A DNA stretch of 50,624 bases, from contig JAAYTH010000047.1 of NCBI GenBank assembly GCA_012523785.1, positions 1 through 50,624 of the forward strand. Reading direction: 5' to 3'. Within the stretch, counting starts at the first letter, position 1; the number at the start of each line of letters is the position of its first letter. The notes below the pieces were generated by a model, which worked only from the letters and a program-made list of their open reading frames with translations, was not told where the DNA came from and searched no databases. Origin of the DNA: Bacillota bacterium. GTDB lineage: Bacteria; Bacillota; DTU030. This document shows, piece by piece, positions 10,201 to 31,792 of the stretch. The position numbers and the translations under genes are program-made.

Positions 10201-10207
10201 TAAATAA

Positions 10208-16341: not shown

Positions 16342-16384
16342 TATTTGTATGGTATTATTATGGTGATGTTAAAATAAAAACAAA

Positions 16385-16490: not shown

Positions 16491-16504
16491 ATATAGAAGT
16501 TTTT

Positions 16505-16535
16505 AAAACGTCTTCTCCAAGACGTTTTTTCTTTT
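16505..16535 (+). terminator. Intrinsic terminator forming the expression platform of the leader
   Basis: AAAACGTCTT (16505-16514), loop CTCC, AAGACGTTTT (16519-16528), then TTCTTTT. An alternative pairing exists between GGAGATGGCG (16481-16490, including the 3' half of the proposed P1) and CGTCTTCTCC (16509-18). That pairing has 8 Watson-Crick pairs plus 1 G-U out of 10 and would act as an antiterminator. Confidence 0.75.
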
Positions 16536-16620
16536 GTCTGTCTATTTTTCCTTGCCAGCCCTCTGTCCCTCGCCTTCACCCGATGGAAGAATAATTATCA
16601 CTAGTTTGGGGTGTTTTGTT

Positions 16621-18132
16621 GTGGTTCACATTAATAAAAGTGTTATTTCCCGCTGCCTACTTGTTATTTTGGCTACCTTTATGTTTGCCAGCTTATTGGC
16701 CCTTGCCCTAACACCGCTTGTGGAGGCTGCCAGCGGTGATCTGGAAATAACCGGCCCTGGTCTTAATGGGAGAAGAATTATTATCAGCCAAGGCCAGTTG
16801 CGGGGCACAGAACCCCTATTTTTCCCGGATGGTACAATGGTTGAACAAGAGGAAGAATGGTACAGTGCTATCAATACTTGGCCCAGTAAGATCTGGTACC
16901 GGGGTCAGGGCATCAAGTTGAGGGACCTTCTCAGAGCTGCCGGCGGGGTTAATGAACAGGCTACACTTATCAAGTTTACTGCTAGGGATGGTTTAACTAT
17001 GACCTTTACCCTAGAGGAGTTAATAAATGAACCCGCCTATCGTTTCCCCAATTTTATGGATGGTGGTTTAGAGGGCCATCTTCCCGGTGATCCTTCGGGG
17101 GCAGTACAGGTGGAACCCCTCCTCGCCCATAAGAGTTTTTCCCATCATAAAAAACTAACAATTATGACGGAAGAAAATGAATTAACTGGCAGTGATGCCC
17201 CCCATCTCCTCTTTGGACAGCGGGCGATAACCCAACAAAACAATGCCCGTTTTATCAAGCAGGTAACAAAAATTGAGATACTTACAGATGAAATTGATAA
17301 ATGGGACAAGCCCAGCGTTTCTCCGGCCCCGGGGTTAGTGGCGGCCGGAACCTTGGTGAAACTTTGCGGGCCCTATGGGGATGAAGATAAGGTTCACTAT
17401 ACTATAGATGGCAGCAAGCCAGGCCTAGGGAGCCCTATGTATAACCTGGTTGCCAGCCGCTGGTGGTCCTCCCGCCGCGATTTAGATGACATCAACCGCC
17501 CCATAGAAATTACTGAGGACACAACTATTAAGGCTGTGACAATTGGGCCTGGTAAAGCAGATAGCGATATTGTCAGCTTTATCTTTAGGGTAAAAGAAGA
17601 CGAGGAAGAGACAGGCAAAACCCTTACTGATATTAATGGTCATTGGGCCCAAAATAATATCATTAAACTTGTTAACCGCGGTGCCATCAGTGGCTATATC
17701 GATGGCACCTTTAGGCCAGATCATATTATTACCAGGGCCGAGTATGTTACCGTGCTTTTGAAGGCCTTTCAAATGGAGGGAGAGGGGGAAAGGGTGTTTG
17801 CCGATACAAAATCCCATTGGGCCAAGGGATATATCGCTGCAGCGGTAGCTAAGGGTATTGACGACGGATATGACAGCACTACCTTTGGCCCCGATGATGT
17901 TATTACCCGGGAACAGATGGCAGTAATGGTGGCCCGGGCGGCCAATTTGGCAGCCCCTGGGAATAGGATTTCCTTTGCCGACGGAGATAAGATTTCCCCC
18001 GGGGCTGTGGACAGGGTGGCGGCGGCGGTGGAAAAAGGCATAATTAGGGGATACCCTGACAACACCTTCCGCCCCCAAGGCAGTGCCAGCAGGGCTGAGG
18101 CCGTTACCATTATTACCCGGGCACTGCCCTAG
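16621..18132 (+). CDS. Secreted surface protein, paralog A: SUOX-fold molybdopterin-binding-like domain, then a chitobiase/hexosaminidase-C-like (Fn3-associated) domain, then 3 SLH domains
   Basis: The ORF-track start at 16534 lies inside the terminator. I therefore prefer the in-frame GTG at 16621, which has GGGGTG 7 nt upstream. Signal peptide: CLLVILATFMFASLLALALTPLVEAASG. Motifs: LEITGPG...YSAINTWPSKIWYRGQGIKLRDLL...FTARDG...LLFGQRAITQQ...KIEILT. Also VHYTIDGSKPGLGSPMYN. The C-terminal repeats are SLH-type: HWAQNNIIKLVNRGAISGYIDGTFRPDHIITRAEY, SHWAKGYIAAAVAKGI, ISPGAVDRVAAAVEKGIIRGYPDNTFRPQGSASRAEA. Confidence 0.85.
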   Translation: MVHINKSVISRCLLVILATFMFASLLALALTPLVEAASGDLEITGPGLNGRRIIISQGQLRGTEPLFFPDGTMVEQEEEWYSAINTWPSKIWYRGQGIKLRDLLRAAGGVNEQATLIKFTARDGLTMTFTLEELINEPAYRFPNFMDGGLEGHLPGDPSGAVQVEPLLAHKSFSHHKKLTIMTEENELTGSDAPHLLFGQRAITQQNNARFIKQVTKIEILTDEIDKWDKPSVSPAPGLVAAGTLVKLCGPYGDEDKVHYTIDGSKPGLGSPMYNLVASRWWSSRRDLDDINRPIEITEDTTIKAVTIGPGKADSDIVSFIFRVKEDEEETGKTLTDINGHWAQNNIIKLVNRGAISGYIDGTFRPDHIITRAEYVTVLLKAFQMEGEGERVFADTKSHWAKGYIAAAVAKGIDDGYDSTTFGPDDVITREQMAVMVARAANLAAPGNRISFADGDKISPGAVDRVAAAVEKGIIRGYPDNTFRPQGSASRAEAVTIITRALP

Positions 18133-18241: not shown

Positions 18242-19846
18242 ATGATGGGTTTTACTAGAATATTGGCAGCAAATCATAAAATATCAGCGTCGGCCCTATT
18301 CCTACTGCTGTTCTTTTTTTTGCTTCCATCTGCCTCCGCCAGTGCCGAACCTGGTGGGGCCTTGGAAATCATTGGCCCTGGGGTGGAAACCCCCGGGACA
18401 TTTAAGCTCTCTGAACTGGAGGCCAGGGAGCAATATGAACATATTTACAGTGCTGTAAATACCTACCCCACCAAGCAGTGGTATGTAGCCCGGGGTGTTT
18501 TATTAAAAGATTTGCTTGGGTCCCTTGGCCTTAGGGATGAGGCAACCCTAATCCGTTTTTATTCCCAGGATGGCTATGATGTTGTTTTTACGGTACAAGA
18601 ATTGCTGGTGGACAAGCGCTACTATTTCCCTAAATTAAAGGACAATCATCCCAGTGATGGAAGTGTTCCCGGGTCTTCAGAAGATGCGGAAGAGGTAGAA
18701 ACAATTTTAGCCCTGGTCAGTGCTGAGGGAAGTGATAACCCGGAACATATGAATACAAAGGATACCCTACAGCTTATCCTGGGACAGCGGGCAGTGACGG
18801 AACAAGTAAGCACCTTGTTTGTGAAAAACATAAACAAGATTGAGGTACTAACCAAAGAGCTGGAACAATGGGATCGGCCGCGGATGAATGTGCCGGAGGG
18901 TTTTGTGCTGCCTCCGGGGGCAAAATTAATTTTACAGAACAAGAACTCTGATACCGACAAAATTTATTATACTATTGATGGCAGTACCCCCACTGTGGAT
19001 AGTCCCATGTTTAACTGGAGTGCCAGCCGCTGGTGGCCTCTGCGGGGAGATCTGGATAAGATCAATGCCCCCCTTAAAATTACAGATGACATCTTAAAAG
19101 ACCATGATAAACAAACCCTCACCATTAAGGCCCGGACCATAGGGCCGGGAAAGAAAGATAGCGATATAGTCACCTTTACCTTCTATATAGATCCTGACGC
19201 AGTTGATCCCACATTGGAGACAGGGGGGCCTACTACTGGGGTTTTTCTTGATCGGCAGGAGATTGAACTCCCGGTTGGAGGCACCTTCCAATTGGAGGCT
19301 AGGGTGGAACCTTTTAATGCGGACAACAAACATTTGATCTGGCGTTCCAATGATACCACGGTGGCCGTGGTAGATACCCAAGGTTTGGTGACAATGGTGG
19401 GTACAGGCAGTGCTGTTATCACCGTTGAAACTGTGGAAGGGGGCCACAGGGCTACTTGTCTTATCAATGGTACAGGTGGGGAAGAGGAGGATAAGATTGA
19501 AGTCGAGGAATACCTTGTGGAAGGGGATAATAATGTAAAAGCAGATCCCGTCGAAGGCGGGGGGGTAGATCCTGCTGAAACTGCCCCGTCCCCTGTGTCC
19601 GATGAAAGGTTATCCACAGATAGGTGGCAATACCTGATAAGCAGAGATGAATTATCTAGCCCAACAATAGATGGAACTCCGGGGAAAGAACAAGCCCCTT
19701 TAGGGCAACAAATATTTGCGATGTCGGTGGTAAATCCCACCCCCTTACAGGCGGATAACCATGAATTATCCACCACCTTGATTTTTCTATTTTTACTTCT
19801 TTCCGGTGCTGGTATAAAATACAGCGAATATGTGAAGGAGCTATAG
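18242..19846 (+). CDS. Secreted surface protein, paralog B: same N-terminal two-domain core, then a Big_2-like Ig domain, a low-complexity linker and a C-terminal transmembrane anchor
   Basis: Signal peptide: ALFLLLFFFLLPSASASAEPGG. Core motifs: YSAVNTYPTKQWYVARGVLLKDLL, YSQDGY, LILGQRAVTEQ, KIEVLT, IYYTIDGSTPTVDSPMFN. Big_2-like segment: LPVGGTFQLEARVEPFNADNKHLIWRSNDTTVAVVDTQGLVTMVGTGSAVITV. C-terminal hydrophobic tail: TTLIFLFLLLSGAGI followed by KYSEYVKEL. Confidence 0.85.
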   Translation: MMGFTRILAANHKISASALFLLLFFFLLPSASASAEPGGALEIIGPGVETPGTFKLSELEAREQYEHIYSAVNTYPTKQWYVARGVLLKDLLGSLGLRDEATLIRFYSQDGYDVVFTVQELLVDKRYYFPKLKDNHPSDGSVPGSSEDAEEVETILALVSAEGSDNPEHMNTKDTLQLILGQRAVTEQVSTLFVKNINKIEVLTKELEQWDRPRMNVPEGFVLPPGAKLILQNKNSDTDKIYYTIDGSTPTVDSPMFNWSASRWWPLRGDLDKINAPLKITDDILKDHDKQTLTIKARTIGPGKKDSDIVTFTFYIDPDAVDPTLETGGPTTGVFLDRQEIELPVGGTFQLEARVEPFNADNKHLIWRSNDTTVAVVDTQGLVTMVGTGSAVITVETVEGGHRATCLINGTGGEEEDKIEVEEYLVEGDNNVKADPVEGGGVDPAETAPSPVSDERLSTDRWQYLISRDELSSPTIDGTPGKEQAPLGQQIFAMSVVNPTPLQADNHELSTTLIFLFLLLSGAGIKYSEYVKEL

Positions 19847-19851
19847 TCAAA

Positions 19852-20505
19852 ATGAATGGGCCCATATTGATCTACCTCAAGGATATGCTTCACGGCATTG
19901 CTAGCGGCCTATTAATACCAACCATAATCATCCTTATCTGCTTTTTGGCCTTGTCAGTGGTGGAATTAGGCGGTTTGCTAGTAGAAATCATAATGGAAAG
20001 ACGTCGGGAAAAAACAAATGTACCCCAATTAATAAGTGCCCTGCCGGGAAAAGGTGCTGTGGAGATAATGGCTAAAATAGAACAAAGCTCCCTTTTTCTT
20101 CGGCAGAAGGAAGTTATTGCCGAGATAATCCGCCATAGGGAATTGCCATCTGCTTCTTTGCGCGCCCTGGCTCGACGCCTTCTATCGGCAGAGGAAAGCC
20201 ATTTTACCAGCATAACTGATAGAACTGATCTAGTGGCCCGCTTGGCCCCTATGTTGGGCCTAATGGGCACCCTTATACCCCTAGGACCGGGCATAATTGC
20301 CCTGGGTCAAGGTGATACCCAAACCCTGGCCAGTTCCCTGCTCATTGCCTTTGATACCACTGTAGCAGGCCTGGCCGCCGCTGGCGTTGCCTACGGCATA
20401 TCCCGGCTGCGGAAAAGATGGTATGAGGAGCAGATCAATACATTGGCAGCACTGTTGGAAAGTTTGCTGGAGGTGTTTGAAAATGGACGGGGGCTTGCGG
20501 AATAG
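19852..20505 (+). CDS. MotA/TolQ/ExbB-family proton-channel protein
   Basis: 217 aa. There is an N-terminal TM segment (LLIPTIIILICFLALSVVELGGLLV). The C-terminal two-TM channel core is LAPMLGLMGTLIPLGPGIIALGQGD...LLIAFDTTVAGLAAAGVAYGISRL, typical of MotA_ExbB. The gap to the preceding gene is 5 nt. Confidence 0.85.
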   Translation: MNGPILIYLKDMLHGIASGLLIPTIIILICFLALSVVELGGLLVEIIMERRREKTNVPQLISALPGKGAVEIMAKIEQSSLFLRQKEVIAEIIRHRELPSASLRALARRLLSAEESHFTSITDRTDLVARLAPMLGLMGTLIPLGPGIIALGQGDTQTLASSLLIAFDTTVAGLAAAGVAYGISRLRKRWYEEQINTLAALLESLLEVFENGRGLAE

Positions 20506-20815
20506 AAGGTACAGCGGCCTTGGAAGGAAGGAAGACATCAATCCCCTGGAAGGGGTCATCAATGTTGCCGATATCATGCTGGTTTTTGCCTGTGGTTTGA
20601 TGTTGGCCTTGGCTGTCTATTGGAATATTGATCTGGGCCCGGTAGGGGAACGAATTGATCTCCACAAGGGGCAGGAAATGACAGAGGACCCAAAAATACG
20701 GGACGATTTGGTGGAAAGTCCGGACCAGGGCGGCAGGTATGAACGGGTTGGTACTGTATACAAGGACCCGGCCACGGGACAGCTTTTTATGCTCACTGAA
20801 GGTGAGGGAAAATAG
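20483..20815 (+). CDS. Small single-pass membrane protein, DUF2149-like / ExbD-TolR-analogous partner of the preceding channel protein
   Basis: I chose the ATG at 20483, which has GGAGGTG 7 nt upstream and overlaps the upstream gene by 23 nt. The sequence MDGGLRNRRYSGLGRKEDINPLEGVINVADIMLVFACGLMLALAVYW resembles the ExbD/TolR N-terminal pattern (short charged tail, INxxPhxDVxhVhhhhh TM helix). A soluble tail follows (YERVGTVYKDPATGQLFML). The family assignment is from memory. Confidence 0.6.
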   Translation: MDGGLRNRRYSGLGRKEDINPLEGVINVADIMLVFACGLMLALAVYWNIDLGPVGERIDLHKGQEMTEDPKIRDDLVESPDQGGRYERVGTVYKDPATGQLFMLTEGEGK

Positions 20816-20894: not shown

Positions 20895-22274
20895 ATGGTA
20901 TCAAATAAAAAAGACACTACCCTAGTTGCAAGGCCGGCCCCGGACCCGGGGAAAAAACTTTATTTATTTGGTCCCTTGTTTTTTCTTGTTGCCGGGGTTC
21001 TATTGTTTTCCTTGGTACTGGATCTATCCTTGGGGGCGATGGTTTTTGCTAGCCCCGATTCCCTGATAATTGCCGGGGAAGGGGTGAAGGAGGAAGTGAT
21101 CTTTACCCGGGAAGAATTAGAGGAAATGGAACGGGAGCAATGTCTTTACAGTTCTATAAATACTTGGCCCACCAAGAAGTGGTATGTGGGAGAAGGAATA
21201 AAGCTTATGGATTTGCTCCACCAGGCGGGCCTCAAAAAAGAGGCCACCCTCTTGAGATTCACCGCAGCCGATGGTTTTACCGTGGATTTAACTTATAAGG
21301 AGTTGTTTGAAGACCAGCGTTACTGTTTTCCCAATTTTAAGAAAGGGGCCGCCAGTGGGGAGGGACATGTACCCGGCAGTGCATCTAATGCTGTGGCAGT
21401 GGAACCCATCATTGCCCTTTATGCCGTGGAGGGAAGCAGTGACCCCGAATATATGAGTACCCTATATTCACCCCAGCTGATGTTAGGGCAACGGGCAGTG
21501 ACAGAGCAGACGGGAAACTTATTTGTCAAGTACTTACATAAAATTGAGGTTCTTACCGATGACCTAGAACGGTGGGATGTGCCCCGGGGAAACCCTCCGG
21601 CGGGCCAGGTACCCAAGGGCAGCATGGTAGCCTTGAGCAATGATAACTGTGATGATGACAAGATTTATTACACCCTGGACGGCAGCACCCCCACCATTAA
21701 CAGTCCCATGTACAACTGGATTGCCAGCCGCTGGTGGTCAACCCGGGCGGAAGAATTAGGCACCATCAACCATCCCTTGGGGCCTCTAGTGGAGGACACC
21801 ACCATTAAGGCTGTTACCATTGGTCCCGGCAAGTTGGACAGCGAAGTGGCTGTTTTCCACTATCGGCTGGAAGGTGGGGAAGGGGATAAGGGAACCACCA
21901 TCCTTTTGACCATTGGTGAATATGAAGTTGATGTGGATGGTGAAATTATTTACCTAGATGCTGTCCCCTTTATCAAGCCCGGTGTCGACCGCACCCTGGT
22001 ACCGATACGTTTTATTGCCAAAGCCTTTGGTGTTGATATTGCTTGGAATCCCGAGGCCAGGCTAGTTATCATCAGCCTGGATGGTAAGGAGGTGGTCCTG
22101 GAGATCAACTCTAGCCAAGTGTATGTCAACGGGCTAGCCCGGACCATTGAATGTCCAGCTGAATTGCATCCTCCGGGCCGCACCTTTGTACCCCTGCGTT
22201 TTATCAGCGATATTTTGGGGGCCAAAAGTGTAGATTATGATGGGGAAAGCAGGCAGATAAGTATTATTTGGTAA
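20895..22274 (+). CDS. Surface protein, paralog C: N-terminal TM/signal anchor, the same two-domain core, and a C-terminal copper-amine-oxidase-N-like (stalk) domain
   Basis: TM segment: LYLFGPLFFLVAGVLLFSLVLDLSLGAMVFA. Core motifs: YSSINTWPTKKWYVGEGIKLMDLL, FTAADGF, LMLGQRAVTEQ, KIEVLT, IYYTLDGSTPTINSPMYN. The C-terminal segment is DRTLVPIRFIAKAFGVDIAWNPEARLVIISLDGKEVVLEINS...GRTFVPLRFISDILGAKSVDYD, which is the Cu_amine_oxidN1-type repeat pattern. Confidence 0.85.
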   Translation: MVSNKKDTTLVARPAPDPGKKLYLFGPLFFLVAGVLLFSLVLDLSLGAMVFASPDSLIIAGEGVKEEVIFTREELEEMEREQCLYSSINTWPTKKWYVGEGIKLMDLLHQAGLKKEATLLRFTAADGFTVDLTYKELFEDQRYCFPNFKKGAASGEGHVPGSASNAVAVEPIIALYAVEGSSDPEYMSTLYSPQLMLGQRAVTEQTGNLFVKYLHKIEVLTDDLERWDVPRGNPPAGQVPKGSMVALSNDNCDDDKIYYTLDGSTPTINSPMYNWIASRWWSTRAEELGTINHPLGPLVEDTTIKAVTIGPGKLDSEVAVFHYRLEGGEGDKGTTILLTIGEYEVDVDGEIIYLDAVPFIKPGVDRTLVPIRFIAKAFGVDIAWNPEARLVIISLDGKEVVLEINSSQVYVNGLARTIECPAELHPPGRTFVPLRFISDILGAKSVDYDGESRQISIIW

Positions 22275-22376
22275 GGAAGCGGTTTGTTTTACAACCGTGT
22301 CTATTTTTTTGCTGGGGAGGTGATGTATCCGTTTTGCTTATGTCACCCGGGTAAAATATTATCAGGAGGTAGTAAT

Positions 22377-25300
22377 ATGCCAAAAAAGGTGAATAGGATA
22401 TCTGTACAGAAGGTTTTATCACTTATCTTGGGGTTACTTTTGCTTTTGAGTGGGGCTGGACAATTGACGGTACTTCCCGCCCGGGCCGCCGGAATGGAGG
22501 TACTTTATGAAGGACGGATTGACTTGCCAGCGGGCGAAACCTTTGCTGTAACAGCCTATAACTCAGGGGTATCTTATACGGTGGACATGGATACTCCCTT
22601 GGGGGCCCTCCAAATAGCGGGAGACCTGGCAGGCTTTGAGTATGATGTTACCGACAAGAACATTGATGCCTCGGGTGCCTTATTGCTGGACAATGTGGGC
22701 CAATATGAGCGGAAACCGGGCTATTGGTATGCTTATGTCAATGGTGCCTACAAGGATGGTTTTAACAATCCCGCCGGGGCCCTGAACCTTATTAAGCTCA
22801 CTAATGGCGATGAAGTTGAATTCTATTATGCTGCCGATGTAAAGGGCAAAGAAGAAGATTTAGCTGCTGTTCAAGGGGCTGCCATAGCAGCGGTCATAGC
22901 CCACATAGGAACAGATGGGGCAGCGGTTACGGATACAGGGGAAAAGACAGATGTGGATGTCACCCAAGATGACTGGACCCTGCAGCTTTCAGGTGCCCGG
23001 GAAGAAACGGTTAGCAGGAGCTACTTTGAAGAGGGATTAGCCTGTCATTCAAGCCATCAGGTGTTTTGGACCGATGAGGATGGCAATGAATGGGGTGGGG
23101 TACCCCTTTGGCTCTTGGTGGCCATGGTGGATGACGATCCGGATGAAGGATCGGCCCATTACAACTTTAATGATGAACTGGCAAATGAAGGCTATACCAT
23201 CGACGTTATTGCCGGTGATGGTTGGAAGGCTACCCTCGCTAGTGCAGACATCGCCCGGGATGATGGCTATATTATTGCCAACACCTTAAATGGCAAACCC
23301 CTGCCCAAGGAAACGCCGGGGGGTAAAGACTGCTGGCCCCTCCATTTAAAGGGAGAAAAGATCTTTGGTGGCCAACAGGTGGGTAACATTGTCCGCATTG
23401 AACTGACCGGCCTGCCAAAACCAGTAGAAGGATGGACATTAGAGCTGGTGGGTAAGGTTGGAGATTCCATCACCCAGGAAGAATTTGAAAAGGGGCAAGT
23501 CTGTATCGGGACCAAGGACCACTATGCCGAGTGGACCGATAATGAAGGGAAAGTTTGGTCCGGTACCCCCCTATGGATATTGGCCGGTGCTGTAGATGAT
23601 ATTGAAGAAAGCACCCATTGGACCTTTAATGATGTCGTGGCCCAGGAGGGTTATACCATACGCGTAGAGGCCGAAGACGGATTTTCCAGGACTTTTTCCA
23701 GCCAAGATGTGGCCCGCAGTGGCGACTACATTGTTGCCGATCGGGTAGATGGTAAACCTCTTTCTGCCAAACACTGGCCCCTCCGTCTTGTCGGTCCTGG
23801 TGTGACCAAAGAGGATGGTTCCCTGGGTGGGGCCGCTGTCGGCAACATTGTTAAAATTACAATTCCCGAATTGCTTACGCCGGCGGCGGAGGGGGGCTCT
23901 TGGAATCTTACCCTTACCGGTGCAATTGACTATATCATGTCCCAGGCAGAATTTGAAGAGGGCCTAGCCTGCCATAAAAAAGAATGGATAGATGCCGAGG
24001 GCCAAGTCTGGTCCGGGATGCCCCTTTGGTACTTGGCGGGTTGGGTAGATGATAAGGTACCCCACGATTTTAATGTCAATCTGGCTAATGCCGGGTATAC
24101 AATCCATGTCAAGGCGGAGGATGGCTATACCAAGGATTTTGCCAGTCAAGATGTGGCCAAGAGCAGTGACTATATACTGGCCAATGAAGTAGATGGTGAA
24201 CCCTTAACTGAATCCTGGCCCCTACGCTTGGTCGGTGACGGTGTAGCTACAGATGGTTCCTTAGGTGGTCACAGTGTAGGTGGTGTGGCGACTGTAGCCT
24301 TGACTGATTTTGAGGCAGAAACGCCTGTACCAGAAATTCGGATCATAAAATACGGCGAAGATGGCCAAACCGTTCTGGCTGAGGAGACAGTAACCTACCA
24401 GTGGATGGAGGAAAACTTGGAAGTAATTGGTGATGGAAAAACTGTTTACAGATATGAAGGAATCATTTTTGACCCCGAAGATGAATGGGGTGATAATATT
24501 GCTGTCCCGAAGGATTTCAAAATTGAGAATGCCGTAAAGGGTACCCGGGTCAAGGATTTAGTGGAACTTGTCGGAGGGATGGGGGCTGGGACCGAAATTG
24601 TTTTTGTGGCCAAGGATGGCTGGGAAACCAGGTTACCCTATTCCAGTATTTATACAGACCCAATGGTGCAGGAACGTCAGGGTGACGCCATTCTGGCATG
24701 GTATTCCGATGGCGAATATGTACCCGACTACGCTGGAATTCGCCTCTTCTTTACCCCCGGTGGGGATCATATCTACCGGCAAAAAGATATGCGGGACACC
24801 CTTCCGGAGGCTTACTGGCACTATTACGGTAAGGGCGGTACATTACTTCCCTCCTGTGCCGGTTTATCGGCAAAATGGCTTGCGGAGGTTTGGGTTTATT
24901 CTATGCCGGAAAAGGATTGGACACTGAAGTTGGATGGCAGGGAGATCGGTGGGCTGGAATATGAGGTGAGCAAAACCTATTGGGAGCAGGGTCTGACCTG
25001 TCAGTTTGGTGCCAACCATAAGTCTTCTTACACCGATGATAAAGGACGGGTGTGGGAGGGAATGTCCCTTTGGCTTTTGGCCGGATTTGTCGATGATGAG
25101 GATCAGCACTCCGACCATGCCTTTAACACTGCGCTGGCCGAGGCTGGTTACAATATCCTCCTCACTGCTGCTGACGGTCATTCTGTGACGGTCCACAGCA
25201 CCGATATCATACGAAATAAGGATTATATTGTGGCCAGTATGTTAGATGGCCGAGCTATGTCAGAAGATGATAAACACTGGCCCCTGCGTTTGGTGGGCCC

Positions 25301-25865
25301 TGCGGTAAGTGGTAAGAATTCGATTTCACAAATTGTTAAAATTGAGCTTCTCCCGGATTCCGACATTGCCGGACATTGGGCGGAAGAGAGTATTAAGAAA
25401 TTGATGGACAGGGGAGTAATAGAAGGCTATCCCGATGGCACCTTTAGGCCAGAAGAAAACATAACCCGGGCTGAGTTTGCTGCTTTACTAGTAAAAGCCT
25501 TTGGACTTGACGTCTCCGGTGAAAAGGTATTTGCTGACACAGCTGGCCATTGGGCTCAAAGTATCATCTCTACGGCTGAATACCATGACATCGTATCCGG
25601 TTATGATGAAAATACCTTTGGACCCAATGATCCGGTTACCCGGCAAGAAGTGGCAGTAATGATTGTCCAGGCGGCTCAACTAGATCCAAAGGCTAACTTA
25701 CCGGCCTTTGCCGATGCTGACAGCATTTCTCCCTGGGCTAAAGATGCCATTGCCCGGGCGACGGCAGCTGGGGTCATCAAGGGATATCCCGACGAAACCT
25801 TCCAGCCCCAAGGAAAAGCCAGCCGGGCAGAGGCGGTCACGGTTTTAGTCAATTGCTTGGGCTAG
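22377..25865 (+). CDS. 1162-aa SLH-anchored multi-module surface protein: DUF4430-like domain, then 4 similar plus 1 divergent SUOX-fold molybdopterin-binding-like modules, then 3 SLH domains
   Basis: I moved the start to the ATG at 22377, which has AGGAGG 7 nt upstream; the track start is 22284. Signal peptide: VLSLILGLLLLLSGAGQLTVLPARAAG. The DUF4430-like stretch (about 22494-22835) ends GYWYAYVNGAYKDGFNNPAGALNLIKLTNGDEVEFYYA. The repeated modules lie at about 22968-23411, 23427-23870, 23895-24308 and 24912-25352. A divergent module lies at about 24324-24902. Each module starts W(T/N)L.L.G and ends HWPLRLVGP or SWPLRLVGD ...VGNIVKI. SLH repeats run from 25362 (HWAEESIKKLMDRGVIEGYPDGTFRPEENITRAEF ...). 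Confidence 0.85.
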   Translation: MPKKVNRISVQKVLSLILGLLLLLSGAGQLTVLPARAAGMEVLYEGRIDLPAGETFAVTAYNSGVSYTVDMDTPLGALQIAGDLAGFEYDVTDKNIDASGALLLDNVGQYERKPGYWYAYVNGAYKDGFNNPAGALNLIKLTNGDEVEFYYAADVKGKEEDLAAVQGAAIAAVIAHIGTDGAAVTDTGEKTDVDVTQDDWTLQLSGAREETVSRSYFEEGLACHSSHQVFWTDEDGNEWGGVPLWLLVAMVDDDPDEGSAHYNFNDELANEGYTIDVIAGDGWKATLASADIARDDGYIIANTLNGKPLPKETPGGKDCWPLHLKGEKIFGGQQVGNIVRIELTGLPKPVEGWTLELVGKVGDSITQEEFEKGQVCIGTKDHYAEWTDNEGKVWSGTPLWILAGAVDDIEESTHWTFNDVVAQEGYTIRVEAEDGFSRTFSSQDVARSGDYIVADRVDGKPLSAKHWPLRLVGPGVTKEDGSLGGAAVGNIVKITIPELLTPAAEGGSWNLTLTGAIDYIMSQAEFEEGLACHKKEWIDAEGQVWSGMPLWYLAGWVDDKVPHDFNVNLANAGYTIHVKAEDGYTKDFASQDVAKSSDYILANEVDGEPLTESWPLRLVGDGVATDGSLGGHSVGGVATVALTDFEAETPVPEIRIIKYGEDGQTVLAEETVTYQWMEENLEVIGDGKTVYRYEGIIFDPEDEWGDNIAVPKDFKIENAVKGTRVKDLVELVGGMGAGTEIVFVAKDGWETRLPYSSIYTDPMVQERQGDAILAWYSDGEYVPDYAGIRLFFTPGGDHIYRQKDMRDTLPEAYWHYYGKGGTLLPSCAGLSAKWLAEVWVYSMPEKDWTLKLDGREIGGLEYEVSKTYWEQGLTCQFGANHKSSYTDDKGRVWEGMSLWLLAGFVDDEDQHSDHAFNTALAEAGYNILLTAADGHSVTVHSTDIIRNKDYIVASMLDGRAMSEDDKHWPLRLVGPAVSGKNSISQIVKIELLPDSDIAGHWAEESIKKLMDRGVIEGYPDGTFRPEENITRAEFAALLVKAFGLDVSGEKVFADTAGHWAQSIISTAEYHDIVSGYDENTFGPNDPVTRQEVAVMIVQAAQLDPKANLPAFADADSISPWAKDAIARATAAGVIKGYPDETFQPQGKASRAEAVTVLVNCLG

Positions 25866-26019: not shown

Positions 26020-27423
26020 ATGAAGTGCAGGGAATTTATCTTTAACATCTGCCGGGACAGGGCCGGCCCAGTGATTGTCCTGCTGGTGTATTTCTTACTG
26101 TTGACCAATCCTATTCCGGTGGCAGCAGGATGTGGGCACAATGCTGGCCGGGCTGACCATATTCTTCTTTCTTGGACTGGGGATCCCTTGACCACGCAGA
26201 CTATTTCCTGGCAGGCCGGGGCGGGAAGCGGCCAAGATTCCCTCCAATATATTGCCGCCGCCAAATATGACGGTACTTTTTCCGATGTTGGGAAAGTGAA
26301 GGGAAAGGGAAGCCCCCTTGATAAGGACTATTGGCGCTTTACAGTAACCCTAAGGGGTTTATTACCTAAAACCGAATATCTTTATAGGGTCGGCGGGGAA
26401 GGGGATTGGAGTGAACCTGCCTCTTTCACCACCGCCGCACCGGAGGATCGTTTTTCCTTTCTTTATATGGGGGATGTCCAAGAAGGTTATGAAGATTGGG
26501 GTGACATGTTGGCCCAAGTTTGGAAGGAAAATCCCCAACTCCGGTTTGTCCTTATGGGTGGCGACCTGGTGGATAAGGGAAATGATTTAAGTGAATGGCA
26601 GCAATTTTTAACTGCCGCCGGGCCCGTTTTTAGGAGCCTACCCCTACTAGCGGCGGTAGGAAACCACGATGATACAAACCTATTCCGGACCCTTTTTGCC
26701 TTACCTACCAATGGGCCCAAGGGGCATGAGGGGACTGTCTATTCCTTTGACTATGGTAATTGCCATATCACGGTATTGAATAGCAATTGCATGGGCATTC
26801 CCGGTACCCTGGGTTTTGATGACTTGGCCCATTGGCTGCGGCAGGATTTAGCCTCCAGCCGGCAGACCTGGAAGTTTGTGGTTTTTCACCATCCCCCCTA
26901 CCAGGTGGTTCAAAACTGGCGGGGAGAACACCTGCAAAAGAACTGGGTACCTTTTTTGGAGGAAGGTGGTGTGGACCTGGTCTTTAGTGGCCACCAACAT
27001 GTTTACATGCGGACAAAACCACTATGGGAAGGTTGTATTCAGCCCGAGGGGCAGGGTATTGTCTATGTAATGGGCAATTCAGGCACTAAATACTATGGGC
27101 CCGGCCCTGATCAGGACTATATTACTCAGCAGGTGGCCTGGGTAAGCAATTACCAGTTGATTGAGATTGACGGCAACACTTTATATATGACGGCCAAGGC
27201 TGCTTCGGGTGAGGTAATAGATACCTACAGGATAGTAAAGGGGAGCGGGGTCGTTGACAATCGCAATGATGAAATTTGCCCCGCCGGTTTTAGGTATTAT
27301 TTCATCCCCTGGTGGCTATTACACCCTGTAAAGACTCCTATTGACTATGCCGCCGTCCTTACACAGGCTAATGCGATTATAAGCGCTAACTTGGAGGGTT
27401 TCCCCAGCTATTTTACAAATTGA
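26020..27423 (+). CDS. Secreted or membrane-anchored purple-acid-phosphatase-like metallophosphoesterase
   Basis: 467 aa. RBS AAAGGAG. N-terminal hydrophobic segment GPVIVLLVYFLLLTNPIPVAAGCG. A PAP N-terminal Fn3-like part follows (ILLSWTGDPLTTQTISWQ...YLYRVGG...WSEPASFTTA). The metallophosphatase motifs are FLYMGDVQ, MGGDLVDKG, AVGNHD, VVFHHPPY, SGHQHVY. Confidence 0.8.
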   Translation: MKCREFIFNICRDRAGPVIVLLVYFLLLTNPIPVAAGCGHNAGRADHILLSWTGDPLTTQTISWQAGAGSGQDSLQYIAAAKYDGTFSDVGKVKGKGSPLDKDYWRFTVTLRGLLPKTEYLYRVGGEGDWSEPASFTTAAPEDRFSFLYMGDVQEGYEDWGDMLAQVWKENPQLRFVLMGGDLVDKGNDLSEWQQFLTAAGPVFRSLPLLAAVGNHDDTNLFRTLFALPTNGPKGHEGTVYSFDYGNCHITVLNSNCMGIPGTLGFDDLAHWLRQDLASSRQTWKFVVFHHPPYQVVQNWRGEHLQKNWVPFLEEGGVDLVFSGHQHVYMRTKPLWEGCIQPEGQGIVYVMGNSGTKYYGPGPDQDYITQQVAWVSNYQLIEIDGNTLYMTAKAASGEVIDTYRIVKGSGVVDNRNDEICPAGFRYYFIPWWLLHPVKTPIDYAAVLTQANAIISANLEGFPSYFTN

Positions 27424-27494
27424 TCTTTCGATCAGATGGGCTCCTCCCTATATGTTTTTAAATGTGTTATTTCCCAAGTATGGGGGTTAAGGAT

Positions 27495-28046
27495 ATGCAA
27501 GCACTTATTTTTCGCCAGAAAACATTTGCCTACCTACTTCTCCTTATATTTTGCTTTTGGGGTAACGGCTGTGGCCCAGTAGAAGATCATCCCCCGGGGG
27601 CCGTTATTATCGAAGGAGTTGGTGTAGAAAGTACAGTATCCTTCACTTTGGAAGAATTAAAGGCCTTGGAAGATGGCCTGGTGGAGGCTGATTACTATGC
27701 CCTTAATTCCTATGGCACCGAGGGGCGTTTCCACTTTAAGGGTATTTGGGTATGGCATATAATAGAGAAAATGGTAAATTTGCAGGATGATGCGGCGGTA
27801 GTCAACTTCATTGGCCAGGATGATTACCAGGTGGAGTTTACCCTGGAAGATGTAAAAAAGGAAGATTATATAGATGAAGGGGACCCGGCAGTAAAACACA
27901 AGATGATCATAGCATGGGAAGAAGATGGAGTAGAGTATGATCCTAGCCGAGGCAATCCCTTCCAGCTGGTGGTTGGCCAGCGGGAACCCGGGGATGTGAA
28001 TAGGCCCTACTGGGTGCGAAATCTCAAAATTATTCGTATAGATTAG
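27495..28046 (+). CDS. Small lipoprotein consisting of a single SUOX-fold molybdopterin-binding-like domain
   Basis: The start is uncertain (27462, 27480 or 27495). The signal and lipobox region is AYLLLLIFCFWGNGCGP. Domain pattern: VIIEGVGVESTVSFTLEELKAL...FKGIWVWHIIEKM...VNFIGQDDYQVEF...MIIAWEEDGVEY...NPFQLVVGQREPGDVNRPYWVRNLKIIRI. Confidence 0.75.
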   Translation: MQALIFRQKTFAYLLLLIFCFWGNGCGPVEDHPPGAVIIEGVGVESTVSFTLEELKALEDGLVEADYYALNSYGTEGRFHFKGIWVWHIIEKMVNLQDDAAVVNFIGQDDYQVEFTLEDVKKEDYIDEGDPAVKHKMIIAWEEDGVEYDPSRGNPFQLVVGQREPGDVNRPYWVRNLKIIRID

Positions 28047-28244: not shown

Positions 28245-29315
28245 GTGGAAGTAACAAAAAATCACCCAAAATACTACCTGGGCAATAGAGATCTGTTGAT
28301 CATTGCCGTATTAAGCGGTATTGGTGGGGTGATGAGTACCTATGTAGGCTATTTGGGCAACCTGATAAACCAAGTTTTTGGTGTACCCTTTGGTGCAGGG
28401 CAATTTGCTTCGGGGTTACATGTCTTTTGGTTTATTTTAGTGGCCGGGTTGGTAAAAAAGCCCGGTGCTGCCAGTGCCGCGGGCCTTCTTAAGGGTATTA
28501 TTGAGCTATTGACCGGCAGCACCCATGGTGTGGCCATTGTTTTGGTTTCCCTAGTTCAGGGGCTGTTGATTGATCTGGTTCTTTTTCTCTTCAGGCACCC
28601 TAGTATGGTCAGTTACATGCTGGCCGGCGGCATTTCCGCCGCTTCTAATGTTTTTATCTTTCAACTTCTTTATTTTTCTGGGGCACCTATTACATATATT
28701 ATTTTTATCGGCTCCCTAGCCTTTGTTTCTGGTATTCTCTTGGCTGGCAGTTTTGGGTGGAGTGTTTTGGATGTGGTACTGCAAGCCAGGCCCTATCGCA
28801 TTTCTGCCAGGGAAGAAAACAGCATAATTGCTCCTGATAAAGGAGTTAAAACAGCCCCCTCCACCATTAAAGTTGTTAGCACCTTCCTTTTGATACTATT
28901 ATTGGCTGGGGGGGCGGTATACTATTTTGCCCTTGTTTTTGAACCACCTTGGATTGCCCCCCTCATTCAAGTAGAAGGGGCAGTAGAAAAGACCATTTCC
29001 CTTCCCCTGGAACACTTTACCTCCCATGAAACAACGATTAGGGCCGAATTGCAGGGCCAGGTCAAATATGTCCCCCCCCAAGAATATACGGGGATTCCCG
29101 TCTATGCCATATTACAAGAATCAGTACCCTCAAGTGAAGCTACGAAACTCAAGGTTATGGCTTCTGATGGCTATATGGTGGAGTTTGATTTGATAAAGGT
29201 GTTAAATGATAACCAGATGCTCCTCATCCGTGAAGGGGATAGCCTACGGCTAATAGCCGGAAATTATGAGGGAGGCCGTTGGGTAAGGATGGTAAACAAG
29301 TTTATTATAGAGTAA
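28245..29315 (+). CDS. ECF-transporter substrate-specific (S) component fused, through an extra TM helix, to a C-terminal extracytoplasmic SUOX-fold molybdopterin-binding-like domain
   Basis: The start is ambiguous: GTG at 28245 with GGGGGG 7 nt upstream, versus the track start at 28179. There are about 6 hydrophobic helices in S-component style (LLIIAVLSGIGGVMSTYVGYL; GLHVFWFILVAGLV; AIVLVSLVQGLLIDLVLFLF; MLAGGISAASNVFIFQLLYF; ITYIIFIGSLAFVSGILLAG). A seventh helix follows (VVSTFLLILLLAGGAVYYFALVF). The soluble domain lies at about 28965-29312: IQVEGAVEKTISLPLEHF...YTGIPVYAILQE...KVMASDGYMVEFD...LRLIAGNYEGGRWVRMVNKFII. The gene is immediately followed by EcfA-A and EcfT genes. Confidence 0.7.
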   Translation: MEVTKNHPKYYLGNRDLLIIAVLSGIGGVMSTYVGYLGNLINQVFGVPFGAGQFASGLHVFWFILVAGLVKKPGAASAAGLLKGIIELLTGSTHGVAIVLVSLVQGLLIDLVLFLFRHPSMVSYMLAGGISAASNVFIFQLLYFSGAPITYIIFIGSLAFVSGILLAGSFGWSVLDVVLQARPYRISAREENSIIAPDKGVKTAPSTIKVVSTFLLILLLAGGAVYYFALVFEPPWIAPLIQVEGAVEKTISLPLEHFTSHETTIRAELQGQVKYVPPQEYTGIPVYAILQESVPSSEATKLKVMASDGYMVEFDLIKVLNDNQMLLIREGDSLRLIAGNYEGGRWVRMVNKFIIE

Positions 29316-29366: not shown

Positions 29367-30905
29367 ATGACAATGCCCCTCGTAGCCATCAATAATTTAT
29401 CCTTCACCTACAATGGCACTGTCTCTCCTGTACTGAGGAACATTAACCTGCAGGTATACCCGGGGCAATTTTTAACCATAACTGGTCCCAGCGGCTGTGG
29501 AAAATCCACCCTGGCCCTCTGCTTGGCGGGTTTTATTCCCCATGCCTATCCGGGAAAAATGACCGGCAGCATTCACATACAGGGGAAGGATACCCGGGAT
29601 TATCCGGCCGGAGGTTTATCGGGTATTGTGGGCCTGGTGCAGCAAGATCCGGAGGCTCAACTTTGTACCTTGACGGTAAAGGATGAAATAGCCTTTGGCC
29701 CGGAAAATCTTTGTTTGCCACCGAAGGTGATAAGAAAGCGGGTTTTAAGCGCCCTGGAAGCTGTGGGAGCTAAAGATTTGCTTGCCAGGAAGGTTCATAC
29801 CCTTTCTGGGGGTGAAAAACAGCGAATAGCCATTGCCTCAGTGCTGGCTATGAATCCTTCCCTTTTGATCTTGGATGAACCGACGGCAAATCTGGACCCT
29901 TCCTGTACCAGGGAGGTATTGCTTACTTTGGGGGAACTAAAGGGAAGGCAGAAAACTGCCATTATAGTCCTAGAACATCGAATAGATAGGTTAGCCGGTA
30001 TTACCGATAGACTTTTTTATATGGATAAAGGAAGATTATTCACGGCCCGGGGTCCGGATAAATTCAAAAAAAAATATGTACCCAGCAAAAGGCGCCACGG
30101 GCCCATGTCAGCTGGGGTCCAGGTTGCAAATAAGACTAATGCAAGCAATAACAATAAAGTGCTTCCCCTATTGACAGTGGAAAATTTGCGGGCTGGCTAT
30201 GCTGCTAGGGACGTTTTTAGCGATCTCAGTTTTTCCATTTATTCCGGGGAAACCCTGGCCCTTATGGGGGATAACGGTAGTGGCAAAACCACACTTTTAT
30301 TGGCATTGTTGGGTCTTTTGCATAATACAGGGGGCAGTATATACTTTAGGGGCGAAAATATAACCAAAATGAAGGCCTCCCAGCGGGCCCGGGAGATGGG
30401 CCTAGTTTTCCAAAACCCTAACCACCAGATATTTGCTCCTACTGTTACTGAAGAAGCAATGCTGCCTTCCCTTTATTTAAGCCCGGAAACGCCGGGGCAA
30501 ATCAAAGGCAAGGTTAAAAAGCTGCTGGGGGAATTTGAACTATTAAAGTATGAAAATCTTAATCCCTTTACCCTGAGTTTGGGGGAGAAAAAAAGACTTA
30601 CTCTCCTTTCGGTCCTGGCCTATGCACCGTCCCTTTTACTTTTGGATGAACCCCTTGTGGGGCAGGATAGCCGGCGACTGGGGATTTTTTTCGCTGCTTT
30701 ACAAAAGCACCGGCACCGGGGAGGAGGGGCATTGATGATCTGCCATGAACCAGAGGTGGTTCATTCTTGCTGCCAAAGGGTTTTGTTTTTGGAGCAGGGT
30801 AAATTGCTCATTAATGCCCCGGTAAAGGAAGCCTTTTGCCAATTGGAAAAAATGGGGCGCGGGGAATATTTGCCCTTACAGGCCGAGGGGAAGTGGGGGG
30901 AGTGA
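29367..30905 (+). CDS. ECF transporter ATPase, fused tandem EcfA-EcfA' (two ABC nucleotide-binding domains)
   Basis: 512 aa. RBS GGGAGGG. The first domain has GPSGCGKST, LSGGEKQR and LLILDEP. The second domain has GDNGSGKTT, LSLGEKKR and LLLLDEP. Confidence 0.9.
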   Translation: MTMPLVAINNLSFTYNGTVSPVLRNINLQVYPGQFLTITGPSGCGKSTLALCLAGFIPHAYPGKMTGSIHIQGKDTRDYPAGGLSGIVGLVQQDPEAQLCTLTVKDEIAFGPENLCLPPKVIRKRVLSALEAVGAKDLLARKVHTLSGGEKQRIAIASVLAMNPSLLILDEPTANLDPSCTREVLLTLGELKGRQKTAIIVLEHRIDRLAGITDRLFYMDKGRLFTARGPDKFKKKYVPSKRRHGPMSAGVQVANKTNASNNNKVLPLLTVENLRAGYAARDVFSDLSFSIYSGETLALMGDNGSGKTTLLLALLGLLHNTGGSIYFRGENITKMKASQRAREMGLVFQNPNHQIFAPTVTEEAMLPSLYLSPETPGQIKGKVKKLLGEFELLKYENLNPFTLSLGEKKRLTLLSVLAYAPSLLLLDEPLVGQDSRRLGIFFAALQKHRHRGGGALMICHEPEVVHSCCQRVLFLEQGKLLINAPVKEAFCQLEKMGRGEYLPLQAEGKWGE

Positions 30906-31792
30906 ATTTACACCTTAAAGGCAAATATAAAACCTTACTCCCAAAAGCAAAACAAAAAGACATTTATCCCGGTTTGACCTATGTCGATAACCCATCCCGG
31001 ATTCACTCTTTGCACCCCCTTATCAAGTTGGCCTTGCTGTTTTGCTTTGGTATAATGGTTTTTGCCGTTTCCACGGTTATGGGTCAGGTTCTTCTCTTTT
31101 GCCTGCTTTTAACCGCCTGTCTCCTGGCCCAATTGGGTAGCTCTTTTTTCCTTCGCAGATTGAGATTTATTTTTATATTTTGTTTTTTTATCTTCCTGGT
31201 CCAAGCCCTGACGGTAAAAGAAGGCTTTTTGATCTGGCGTTTTTCCCTCGGCTACTTTCACCTATCTTTATGGTCAAAGGGGCCCTGGGAAGGTTTACGA
31301 ATGGCAATGCGTTTTATCAATATTATCGGCTCTAGTTTCTTGTTTGTGGCCACTACAGATCCTAATAGGTTGGCCTATGCCCTAATGCAGGTTGGACTTC
31401 CATATCGCCATGGCTTTGCCCTCATAACAGCCCTCCGTTTTATCCCGGTTTTTCATCTGGAGTTGGAGCAGGTAAAAAATGCCCAAGCGGCCAAGGGTAT
31501 AGAGCTGGAAGGACTTTCACCTAAGCAACTGCTGCGAGCCCTCAAATATATTTTGCTCCCCCTGGTTGTCTCTAGTTTGAGCCGGGTGGATAATTTGACC
31601 CTTTCCATGGAGGGCCGGGCCTTTGGTTTACACCCCCAAAGGACTTATATGCACTCCCAAGTATTATCAGAGAAAGAAAAAATAGTGCTTTTTATGATTC
31701 CGCCCGCATTTTTGCTTCTATATTTTATTTGTAATTGCCCGGCAGCGCTCCTTAATACCATCCTGAATATTGCAAAGTCCCTTTGGCACTGA
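30902..31792 (+). CDS. ecfT: ECF transporter transmembrane T component (EcfT/CbiQ family)
   Basis: The GTG at 30902 overlaps the TGA of the ATPase gene (GTGA), and the track start at 30836 is probably too early. The protein is multi-TM with the two coupling-helix-type motifs VKNAQAAKGIE and LSMEGRAFG (the AxxxRG pattern). Confidence 0.85.
   Translation: MNLHLKGKYKTLLPKAKQKDIYPGLTYVDNPSRIHSLHPLIKLALLFCFGIMVFAVSTVMGQVLLFCLLLTACLLAQLGSSFFLRRLRFIFIFCFFIFLVQALTVKEGFLIWRFSLGYFHLSLWSKGPWEGLRMAMRFINIIGSSFLFVATTDPNRLAYALMQVGLPYRHGFALITALRFIPVFHLELEQVKNAQAAKGIELEGLSPKQLLRALKYILLPLVVSSLSRVDNLTLSMEGRAFGLHPQRTYMHSQVLSEKEKIVLFMIPPAFLLLYFICNCPAALLNTILNIAKSLWH

Follow-up and report, generated by a model that had tools for sequence, protein, structure and literature searches.

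A YkoE-type ECF S component with a fused SUOX-fold domain and its probable place in a tungsten/molybdenum cofactor riboswitch regulon

S components of energy-coupling factor (ECF) transporters figure in textbooks as minimal six-helix proteins that bind their substrate directly. What, then, is the role of an S component that carries a seventh transmembrane (TM) helix and a folded domain behind it, and which compound does it import? The question is raised by an open reading frame (ORF) at positions 28245-29315 (+ strand) of contig JAAYTH010000047.1 from a Bacillota bacterium (GTDB lineage DTU030, GenBank assembly GCA_012523785.1), whose positions 1 to 50,624 were analysed as one stretch of 50,624 nucleotides, called here the window. 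The ORF is the S gene of an ECF importer whose fused capture domain has no precedent and whose regulon is new, very probably one governed by tungsten (W)/molybdenum (Mo) cofactor riboswitches. As to the substrate, we put forward, with the scales about level, that the gene encodes the capture subunit of a group I ECF importer that salvages pterin-type W/Mo cofactor species.

Three-part build and topology of the S component

The ORF (28179/28245-29315, + strand) was confirmed. Translation from a GTG start at 28245, which is preceded by a GGGGGG Shine-Dalgarno-like run, gives a product of 356 amino acids (aa) identical to one database protein (P0001). With high confidence, it consists of a YkoE-type S body, a linker with a seventh TM helix and a C-terminal domain of the SUOX fold:

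28245..28790 (+), S-component body, aa 1-182, six TM helices of YkoE type (Pfam, profile and fold)
28791..28862 (+), predicted cytoplasmic linker, aa 183-206, disordered, of variable length and net positive (pLDDT < 50, charge counts)
28863..28937 (+), seventh TM helix, aa 207-231 (model and hydropathy)
28938..29315 (+), predicted extracytoplasmic minimal SUOX-fold domain, aa 236-356, plus the stop codon (profile, AlphaFold2 model and Foldseek)

The initial annotation had called the N-terminal part an ECF S component, and this is borne out by family, profile and fold. Pfam assigns aa 15-132 to PF09819 at 72.9 bits (cut-off 25.2). A family profile, built from an alignment of 45 members that is also the basis of the charge and residue-conservation counts given below, matches the YkoE structure 5EDL over aa 15-186 (hmmsearch against PDB, E = 2e-15), and the AlphaFold2 model fits 5EDL with a Foldseek E of 2.6e-6, a target-normalised TM-score of 0.75 and a root mean square deviation of 2.2. 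In the model of the full 356-aa protein (predicted local distance difference test score, pLDDT, of 79), helices across aa 14-181 represent the six S-component helices, the second being broken at aa 54-56; aa 183-203 are disordered, aa 207-231 are helical and aa 240-355 make up a beta-rich domain. The extra hydrophobic helix that had been noticed behind the S body is found at aa 207-231, with a mean Kyte-Doolittle hydropathy of 1.77 over the 45 homologs. The genes for a fused A-A' ATPase and a T component, beginning at 29367 and 30836, adjoin the S gene as in group I ECF systems.

An artificial fusion of two genes by a frameshift had been set beforehand as a finding that would overturn this picture. 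Frameshift and mis-assembly are ruled out by 641 homologs from the protein search and by relatives encoded in at least 264 genomes. The best 120 homologs are nearly all 330-369 aa long, 55-82% identical, and cover at least 92% of the query. When the same architecture was sought elsewhere, by a scan restricted to one genome per species, 80 loci were kept among those 264 genomes, in all of which the alignment spans almost the entire protein. Searched for exhaustively with just the S body, the family proves small (238 clusters at E <= 1e-3, 38 at E <= 1e-30), and its close members are mostly fused. In source databases its members go by the names 'ECF transporter S component', 'thiamin/HMP permease' (HMP, hydroxymethylpyrimidine) and 'molybdopterin-dependent oxidoreductase'. 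The picture of the minimal S component is altered by a widespread and conserved subfamily that has a seventh helix and, outside the cell, a folded binding domain; in a 2024 survey of the S-component fold neither YkoE nor molybdenum is mentioned, nor is a seventh helix or any extracellular domain.

On which side of the membrane does the added domain lie? The odd number of helices had been taken to place it outside the cell, and the net charges of the single segments, counted over the 45 aligned sequences, agree with that. Predicted sides and charges are as follows:

N-tail, inside, net +2.3
loop 2, inside, net +1.9
loop 4, inside, net +1.9
TM6-TM7 linker, inside, net +2.6, positive in 43/45
loops 1, 3 and 5, outside, no Lys or Arg at all
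20 residues after TM7, outside, net -1.8, negative in 41/45
whole C-terminal domain, outside, net -7.8

All S components examined in the YkoE study have a positive intracellular side, as expected from the positive-inside rule (PMC5037267). The charge distribution predicts, with little room for doubt, a topology with the N-terminus inside, seven helices and the C-terminal domain outside, the last in 45/45 of the sequences. The linker between helices 6 and 7 measures 20-34 aa, is poorly conserved and is modelled with pLDDT below 50. A mechanistic question is raised by this arrangement, namely how a toppling S component copes with the tether; the slack of the linker may spare helix 7 from being dragged along when the S body topples against the T subunit.

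Several variants of the architecture occur. In one (P0141, 459 aa, of a form of about 455 aa) TM7 is followed by two outside modules in tandem, S bodies of about 190 aa without a fusion are rare and keep the pocket signature described below (P0126, 191 aa), and one protein is a fusion of S with A-A' (P0188, 717 aa). A single Cys just past TM7 (GPxCxVEG, aa 241) is present in 33/45 family members and is Ile in the window protein.

Substrate pocket and outside domain

In YkoE, Trp49 stacks on the aminopyrimidine of thiamine, Glu77 and Gln95 form hydrogen bonds to it, and the thiazole is touched by Tyr46 and Asp131 (PMC5037267). The HMMER alignment gives their counterparts in the 45 sequences:

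Trp49, stacks on pyrimidine: here H59, 45/45
Glu77, hydrogen bond to pyrimidine: here E87, 45/45
Gln95, hydrogen bond to pyrimidine: here Q105, 45/45
Asp131, contacts thiazole: here Q140, 45/45
Tyr46, contacts thiazole: here S/A56, S in 32 and A in 13

The set of thiamine contacts is not retained, as three of the five residues are changed and the Glu and Gln alone are kept. Family and fold are those of YkoE, and substrate specificity probably differs. Because these positions are strictly conserved and yet 3/5 differ from YkoE, the pocket can be read as a site for an amino-heterocycle other than thiamine. Pterin contains a 2-amino-pyrimidinone ring. Beyond the pocket, the group I thiamine transporter YkoEDC of B. 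subtilis has PF09819, the six-helix fold, the S, fused double ATPase and T set and the Glu/Gln pair in common with the system described here. Contrary to YkoEDC, the present system has the linker, the seventh helix and the outside domain, has His for Trp49 and Gln for Asp131, is accompanied by secreted SUOX-module proteins and is associated with a riboswitch of the Mo cofactor (Moco)/W cofactor (Tuco) class, with no thiamine pyrophosphate (TPP) riboswitch found by Rfam.

The C-terminal domain had been described as having a molybdopterin-binding fold. As far as the fold is concerned, this stands. Folded alone (121 aa, aa 236-356) by AlphaFold2, the domain reaches a pLDDT of 90.6 and a predicted TM-score of 0.83, and its best 42 PDB matches in Foldseek are all SUOX-fold proteins (query-normalised TM-score, TMq, 0.64-0.80), comprising SorA, SoxC, nitrate reductase, YedY/MsrP, sulfite oxidase and the pterin-binding PruR proteins. 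The family profile matches SoxC (E = 2e-7) and SorA (E = 8e-6) in the region aa 275-355. The Pfam family PF00174 has no match in the window protein at E <= 0.01; precomputed PF00174 matches accompany PF09819 in many homologs and are weak where their strength is given. The cofactor site of the enzymes is not part of it, since the Mo-ligand Cys is missing. The equivalent of the hairpin that holds it is 18 aa long here against 37 aa in SorA (profile alignment), and a Cys occurs in this segment in 0/45 sequences. Invariant in the domain are D308-G-Y310, R335, N340, Y341 and W346 (45 sequences).

Is the domain, then, an enzyme without its usual ligand, or a binding module? The Mo enzymes SorA, SoxC, sulfite oxidase and MsrP/YedY have a homologous fold and the motifs G-[IV]-P, D-G and L-R-L-x-x-x-x-Y-x-G-x-x-W-V-K in common with it. 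It differs from them in being about half their size and in lacking the Cys ligand, a dimerisation or heme domain and export by twin-arginine translocation (Tat), so catalysis by it is unlikely. SUOX enzymes receive their cofactor by insertion in the cytoplasm or along the Tat route, neither of which applies to a domain predicted outside; placed after seven TM helices, it could not be exported folded with a bound cofactor. Because it has no Cys, is half the normal size and stands behind seven TM helices, we consider the domain very unlikely to be a Mo enzyme.

The closer parallel is PruR, whose PDB entries are the only matches of similar size (TMq 0.64-0.72, target-normalised TMt 0.57-0.62). 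PruR has a SUOX fold with truncated hairpin and no Cys, is free of Moco, and binds periplasmic pterins between a Tyr and a Trp (PMC11194511). PruR of Agrobacterium and other Proteobacteria (7KOU, 7KOS, 7RKB) and the present domain are both small extracytoplasmic Cys-less SUOX folds, with TM-scores of 0.57-0.72 between them. They differ in that the present domain, found in Bacillota and archaea, has no detectable sequence similarity to PruR and no PW motif, and is fused to a transporter with ECF A-A' and T neighbours, whereas PruR is paired with a DcpA-type GGDEF/EAL cyclic di-GMP enzyme and has a signalling role; for the domain described here, uptake is proposed. Judged from the models, it seems to resemble PruR in kind, without shown family membership, and a pterin site in it is a hypothesis.

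Riboswitch control and conserved neighbours

The riboswitch upstream of the cluster, which was not part of the initial annotation, gives the first clue to the substrate. Three elements precede the first cluster gene:

16330..16358 (+), promoter-like site, judged by consensus alone (TTGCCA-17-TATTAT with TG)
16377..16500 (+), Moco/Tuco riboswitch aptamer RF01055, P3-less (Rfam, 64.9 bits against a gathering cut-off of 36, E = 4e-13)
16505..16538 (+), expression platform, a 10-bp hairpin and T-run forming an intrinsic terminator, just before the first cluster gene at 16534

P3 is deleted in the Rfam alignment of this aptamer. P3-less Moco RNAs were linked to tungsten-cofactor metabolism by Regulski et al. 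2008 (PMC2408646), and the absence of P3 was also used as the Tuco criterion in a study of E. limosum (PMC11725836). A covariance model that we built from seven P3-less Moco RNAs scores the window copy at 92 bits and, run over 82 sources, found 43 copies, 41 of them on the S-gene strand. A copy on that strand lies upstream of the S gene in 31 loci, among them 19/30 bacterial loci with a full 10 kb upstream; three further loci have riboswitch copies beyond the covariance scan, and no archaeal locus has one in that scan. In all 38 parsable copies P2 and P4 are 2-4 nt apart, which leaves P3 absent. The aptamer ends just 76-421 nt before the S start in five loci (L045, L046, L049, L032 and L041), and a hairpin followed by a U-run comes after the aptamer in these five and in the window (6/6), which is the usual OFF arrangement. 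Other copies precede giant surface proteins with SUOX modules, PKD domains and Shr-like HID domains (L044), so that the transporter and the module proteins are independently under the same control. A second riboswitch could not be detected within the cluster of the window even with filters off, and no riboswitch for TPP, tetrahydrofolate, cobalamin or another vitamin reaches the Rfam gathering score in the window and ten related loci. Membership of the S-gene cluster in a W/Mo-cofactor riboswitch regulon is, in our judgement, very likely. Compared with the seventh helix, this regulatory link weighs more, as it points to transport of a pterin-type W/Mo cofactor species.

Between the riboswitch and the T gene, the window encodes the following proteins besides the S component:

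16534..18132 (+), secreted wall protein with a weak SUOX-like module, CHB_HEX_C/Fn3_assoc and 3 SLH domains (domain hidden Markov model, HMM)
18242..19846 (+), secreted protein with a SUOX-like module, CHB_HEX_C and Big_2 (domain HMM)
19852..20505 (+), MotA/ExbB-like channel protein (PF01618)
20387..20815 (+), DUF2149 protein, partner of the ExbB-like protein (PF09919)
20895..22274 (+), secreted protein with a SUOX-like module, CHB_HEX_C and Cu_amine_oxidN1 (domain HMM)
22284..25865 (+), S-layer-anchored protein, 5 SUOX-like modules plus 3 SLH domains, true start probably an ATG near 22377
26020..27423 (+), secreted purple-acid-phosphatase-like metallophosphoesterase with a signal-like N-terminus (PF16656 and PF00149)
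27462..28046 (+), small secreted (possibly lipoprotein) single-module SUOX-like protein (PF00174, 24.1 bits)
29367..30905 (+), fused double ECF ATPase (A-A', YkoD-like) with two ABC_tran domains (TIGR04520/04521)
30836..31792 (+), ECF T component of the CbiQ family (PF02361, 92 bits)

Do the surface proteins really carry the module of the S component? The motif pattern common to both had been noted from the letters alone, and the domain HMM confirms it: run against the 251 window ORFs of at least 60 aa, it matches only five others, all secreted proteins of this cluster, beginning at 27462 (E = 1e-8), 22284 (3e-7, 5 copies), 20895 (2e-6), 18242 (2e-5) and 16534 (4e-3). Profile comparison of the ectodomain family with the wall modules gives 91% probability and E = 1e-6 (hhalign). 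Profiles are required to see this homology, as the ectodomain has no match in the 1193-aa wall protein by BLASTP (E about 1); a wall-module profile of four sequences finds chance-level matches only in PDB. Among its paralogs, the ectodomain is closest to the small secreted protein 27462-28046, whose gene stands directly upstream (BLASTP 6e-5), and a gene like it holds the same position in related loci. The wall modules have an invariant Cys in the hairpin region, and the two membrane-proximal modules, those of 27462 and of the S component, have none; by its position in the hhalign alignment only, the Cys may be equivalent to the SUOX Mo ligand. The distribution of this residue could fit a relay with outer modules for capture and inner ones for hand-off. 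A hand-over of ligand from the wall-anchored paralogs to the ectodomain, suggested by the initial annotation, would agree with this, and it is strengthened because 124 of 125 extra module ORFs in the related loci lie on the S-gene strand and the riboswitch class is shared.

The Cys is kept in four wall-anchored modules of 22284-25865, at about aa 232-1020 (GLACH, QVCIG, GLTCQ).

How constant is this company? Partner frequencies come from the 39 loci that are 15 kb or longer, with the window left out of the count of extra SUOX modules, which is over 38:

A-A' ATPase, 39/39 loci
T component, 39/39 loci, following the S gene as does A-A'
extra SUOX-module ORF, 33/38 loci (124/125 such ORFs on the S-gene strand)
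metallophosphoesterase, 31/39 loci
kinase-like gene, 17/39 loci (5/5 archaeal)
ExbB-like gene, 8/39 loci
DUF2149 gene, 8/39 loci
TrmO-like gene, 7/39 loci
TupA, 5/39 loci

In distant Bacillota the operon is reduced to a riboswitch, a SUOX-module protein with a metallophosphoesterase, the S fusion, A-A' and T; archaeal loci keep the core (L068 with a SUOX-module protein) and have an adjoining kinase-like gene. Phosphoesterases and module proteins possess signal or lipoprotein-type N-termini, which none of the kinase-like proteins has. The phosphoesterases resemble class III cyclic-nucleotide phosphodiesterases; that of L071 has a weak PF00174 match of its own, and those of L068 and L022 match the GEGP-model region that is also matched by the SUOX-module proteins of the cluster. 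Kinase-like proteins show only remote similarity, to Bud32, RIO, APH and ThiK (L068, 13293-14054 on the - strand; L084, 7496-8332; L044, 13503-14192; L001, 13525-14307; L033, 846-1694). Oxyanion transport genes are found in some loci. In L027 (4068-12586) and L035, one riboswitch-led operon runs in the order TupA, TupB, TupC, MOT1-type molybdate transporter, phosphoesterase and ECF genes, in L044 and L049 the gene directly before the S gene encodes a TupA-like binding protein, and L001 has a TOBE gene near it. The ExbB-like/DUF2149 pair corresponds to HmuU/HmuV of the Bacteroidota hmuYRSTUV heme operon (PMC11681262).

Carriers of the fusion include Syntrophomonas, Pelotomaculum, Syntrophaceticus, Thermovorax, Dethiobacteria, Anoxynatronum and Thermotogae and, at 42-45% identity, archaea of the Thermoplasmata, Methanomassiliicoccales and Asgard lineages; Thermovorax subterraneus DSM 21563 and Anoxynatronum species are among the cultured ones. 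They are syntrophic or fermentative anaerobes and members of several archaeal lineages, many known from digester-type metagenomes.

A candidate importer of a pterin-type cofactor

Taken together, an importer that works on W/Mo shortage is favoured by the pterin-fold modules, the phosphodiesterase outside and the kinase-like protein inside, the heterocycle pocket, the co-located oxyanion transporters and the OFF-type riboswitches. We propose the following course of events. On shortage of the W/Mo cofactor, the riboswitch would stop terminating and the cluster would be expressed. The SUOX modules of wall proteins and lipoproteins would capture a pterin-type cofactor species from the surroundings; candidate ligands are molybdopterin, the W/Mo cofactor, a dinucleotide form, and a precursor or a product of breakdown. 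Trimming of the phosphate or nucleotide part might fall to the secreted phosphodiesterase-like enzyme. The ligand would then be taken over by the membrane-tethered ectodomain beside the pocket of the S body, the last station before that pocket, and the S body, with its Glu/Gln pair kept, would topple against the T subunit, the long linker giving the slack, and release the ligand inside, driven by ATP hydrolysis of A-A'. In many genomes the cytoplasmic kinase-like protein could re-phosphorylate the imported compound. An organic substrate rather than an oxyanion is suggested by the Glu/Gln pocket, by TupABC and MOT1 already present in the operon, by the phosphoesterase and by the kinase-like gene.

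A number of observations weigh against this proposal, and for the pterin substrate as such, deduced from the fold, the residues of the pocket, the gene neighbours and the mode of regulation, our confidence reaches an even balance at best and may fall somewhat below it. The PW motif of PruR is present in 0/45 sequences, and no residue-level alignment to the ectodomain was obtained for the PruR pterin contacts N102, Y104 and W160. The window has no kinase-like gene, we know of no kinase or salvage enzyme for dephosphorylated molybdopterin, and none of the neighbourhoods examined showed genes of Moco biosynthesis. Moco and the tungsten cofactor are, moreover, chemically labile. In the window, 11.7 kb separate the riboswitch from the S gene downstream of it, and co-transcription is assumed over three intergenic gaps of 110-200 nt. 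Membership in the regulon does not fix the substrate by itself, because in E. limosum FocA and transporters with an iron ABC annotation are under Tuco riboswitches as well (PMC11725836).

What else might such a system carry? If it were the bare oxyanion, the SUOX-like modules and the phosphatase-like protein would bind tungstate or molybdate, both of which mimic phosphate. Moco and Tuco riboswitches classically control tup and mod transporters (PMC2408646), TupA-like genes directly precede the S gene in L044 and L049, and a TOBE gene is near it in L001. However, L027, L035 and L017 already have TupABC and a MOT1-type transporter within that operon or island. The pocket keeps the Glu/Gln of an aminopyrimidine site and has His, Gln and Ser/Ala at its other contact positions, none of them basic; the recurrent cytoplasmic kinase-like gene would have no role, and no ECF S component for an oxyanion is known to us. 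We regard oxyanion import as unlikely. Another nutrient altogether, for example a tetrapyrrole or an iron complex linked to W-cofactor demand through co-regulation only, could account for the HmuU/HmuV-like pair, for the Shr-like HID domains of related surface proteins, and for the 'iron' ABC transporters under Tuco riboswitches in E. limosum (PMC11725836). Yet the ExbB/DUF2149 pair occurs in 8/39 loci as against SUOX modules in 33/38, the binding modules have a pterin/Moco fold, not that of NEAT or HmuY, and the S pocket resembles a pyrimidine-binding site, which makes this reading rather less likely again. Heme in particular was downgraded as a candidate, both the HmuU/HmuV-like pair and the HID domains being found in a minority of loci.

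Import of thiamine or HMP in the manner of YkoEDC, as in the JGI annotation, with the outside phosphatase freeing thiamine from thiamine phosphates and the kinase-like protein as thiamine kinase, would agree with membership in PF09819, the similarity to 5EDL, the kept pyrimidine-binding Glu and Gln, the remote ThiK/APH similarity and the thiamine/HMP labels in source databases. It is nevertheless improbable: the window and ten related loci have Moco RNAs instead of TPP riboswitches, the latter failing to reach the Rfam gathering score there, the stacking Trp49 is replaced by an invariant His and the thiazole contact Asp131 by an invariant Gln, and it is not evident what a molybdopterin-fold ectodomain and wall modules would do in capturing thiamine. 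A few homologs bear the name 'molybdopterin-dependent oxidoreductase' (P0072), and Moco riboswitches also precede cofactor-using enzymes (PMC2408646); together with the invariant Cys retained in the hairpin region of the wall modules, this would suit SUOX-like domains that are real extracellular Mo/W enzymes (MsrP/YedY-like), with the S body as anchor or the ECF system delivering their cofactor. Against such enzymes stand the 121-aa ectodomain, its hairpin cut to 18 aa with Cys in 0/45, its position C-terminal to seven TM helices without folded export by Tat, and the wall protein, whose signal peptide has no twin-arginine motif. The terminator platforms imply expression at low cofactor, the opposite of the need of a cofactor user, and known ECF systems are importers. 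Of the four alternatives, this is the one to which we give the least credence.

Returning to salvage of a pterin-type cofactor, parts of its design have precedents in other uptake systems. In CbiMNQO and NikMNQO, group I systems for metals, the capture unit likewise exceeds the six-helix S body, by CbiN or NikK/NikL. There the additional parts are small proteins in their own right and serve Ni or Co, whereas here a folded binding domain is fused by way of the seventh helix. The Isd and Shr NEAT relays for heme, together with the heme ECF transporter LhaSTA, place a repeated binding module on wall proteins upstream of a membrane importer. Their logic is alike and Shr-like HID domains occur in related loci, but here the module is SUOX-like and not NEAT, control is by a W-cofactor riboswitch, and the hand-over is only inferred. 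TupABC and ModABC are under the same riboswitch class and their genes are often neighbours; they are classical binding-protein ABC importers of oxyanions, in contrast to the ECF type with a pterin-fold capture domain.

Tentatively, and with more doubt than we attach to the importer itself, the chain from wall modules, which would capture the cofactor or strip it off, to a new kinase that would restore the phosphate could be the first prokaryotic route of uptake or salvage for a molybdopterin-type cofactor, be it the W/Mo cofactor or a precursor. If salvage is confirmed, it would be categorically new, as this cofactor has long been assumed not to be taken up by cells. The literature found on Moco uptake and transporters consists of work on nematodes, a mitochondrial and a fungal review, a metabolic model of E. 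coli and a review of MoaA, with no bacterial importer among them; uptake itself is reported there for nematodes only. No work on a Moco riboswitch together with ECF was found; coverage was incomplete and a prior description elsewhere is possible. A 2026 review of pterin signalling does not mention ECF systems and states the passage of pterins across membranes as unknown. Syntrophic and fermentative anaerobes rely heavily on tungsten enzymes, and cofactor sharing in their communities would therefore be ecologically relevant.

Some further observations concern neighbouring genes. In L033 (15278-19442), a second P3-less riboswitch precedes an ECF S component of PF12822, a NifX-like Nitro_FeMo-Co protein and a xanthine-dehydrogenase-type molybdoenzyme. 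A TrmO/TsaA-like gene (PF01980) is situated beside the S gene or downstream of T in some loci (L003, 9120-9929; L001, 14550-15386), with no apparent link to the system. The window itself encodes a solitary BioY S component without adjacent ECF module at 36161-36805 (+), its only ECF A and T genes being those of the studied cluster. At 533-3970 (-) lies a ribonucleotide reductase gene split by an intein with a LAGLIDADG endonuclease domain, and 4373-16341 (+) is a dense DNA-end-processing block with a NurA-like/HerA-like pair, Mre11/Rad50-like genes and an AddAB-type helicase-nuclease pair.

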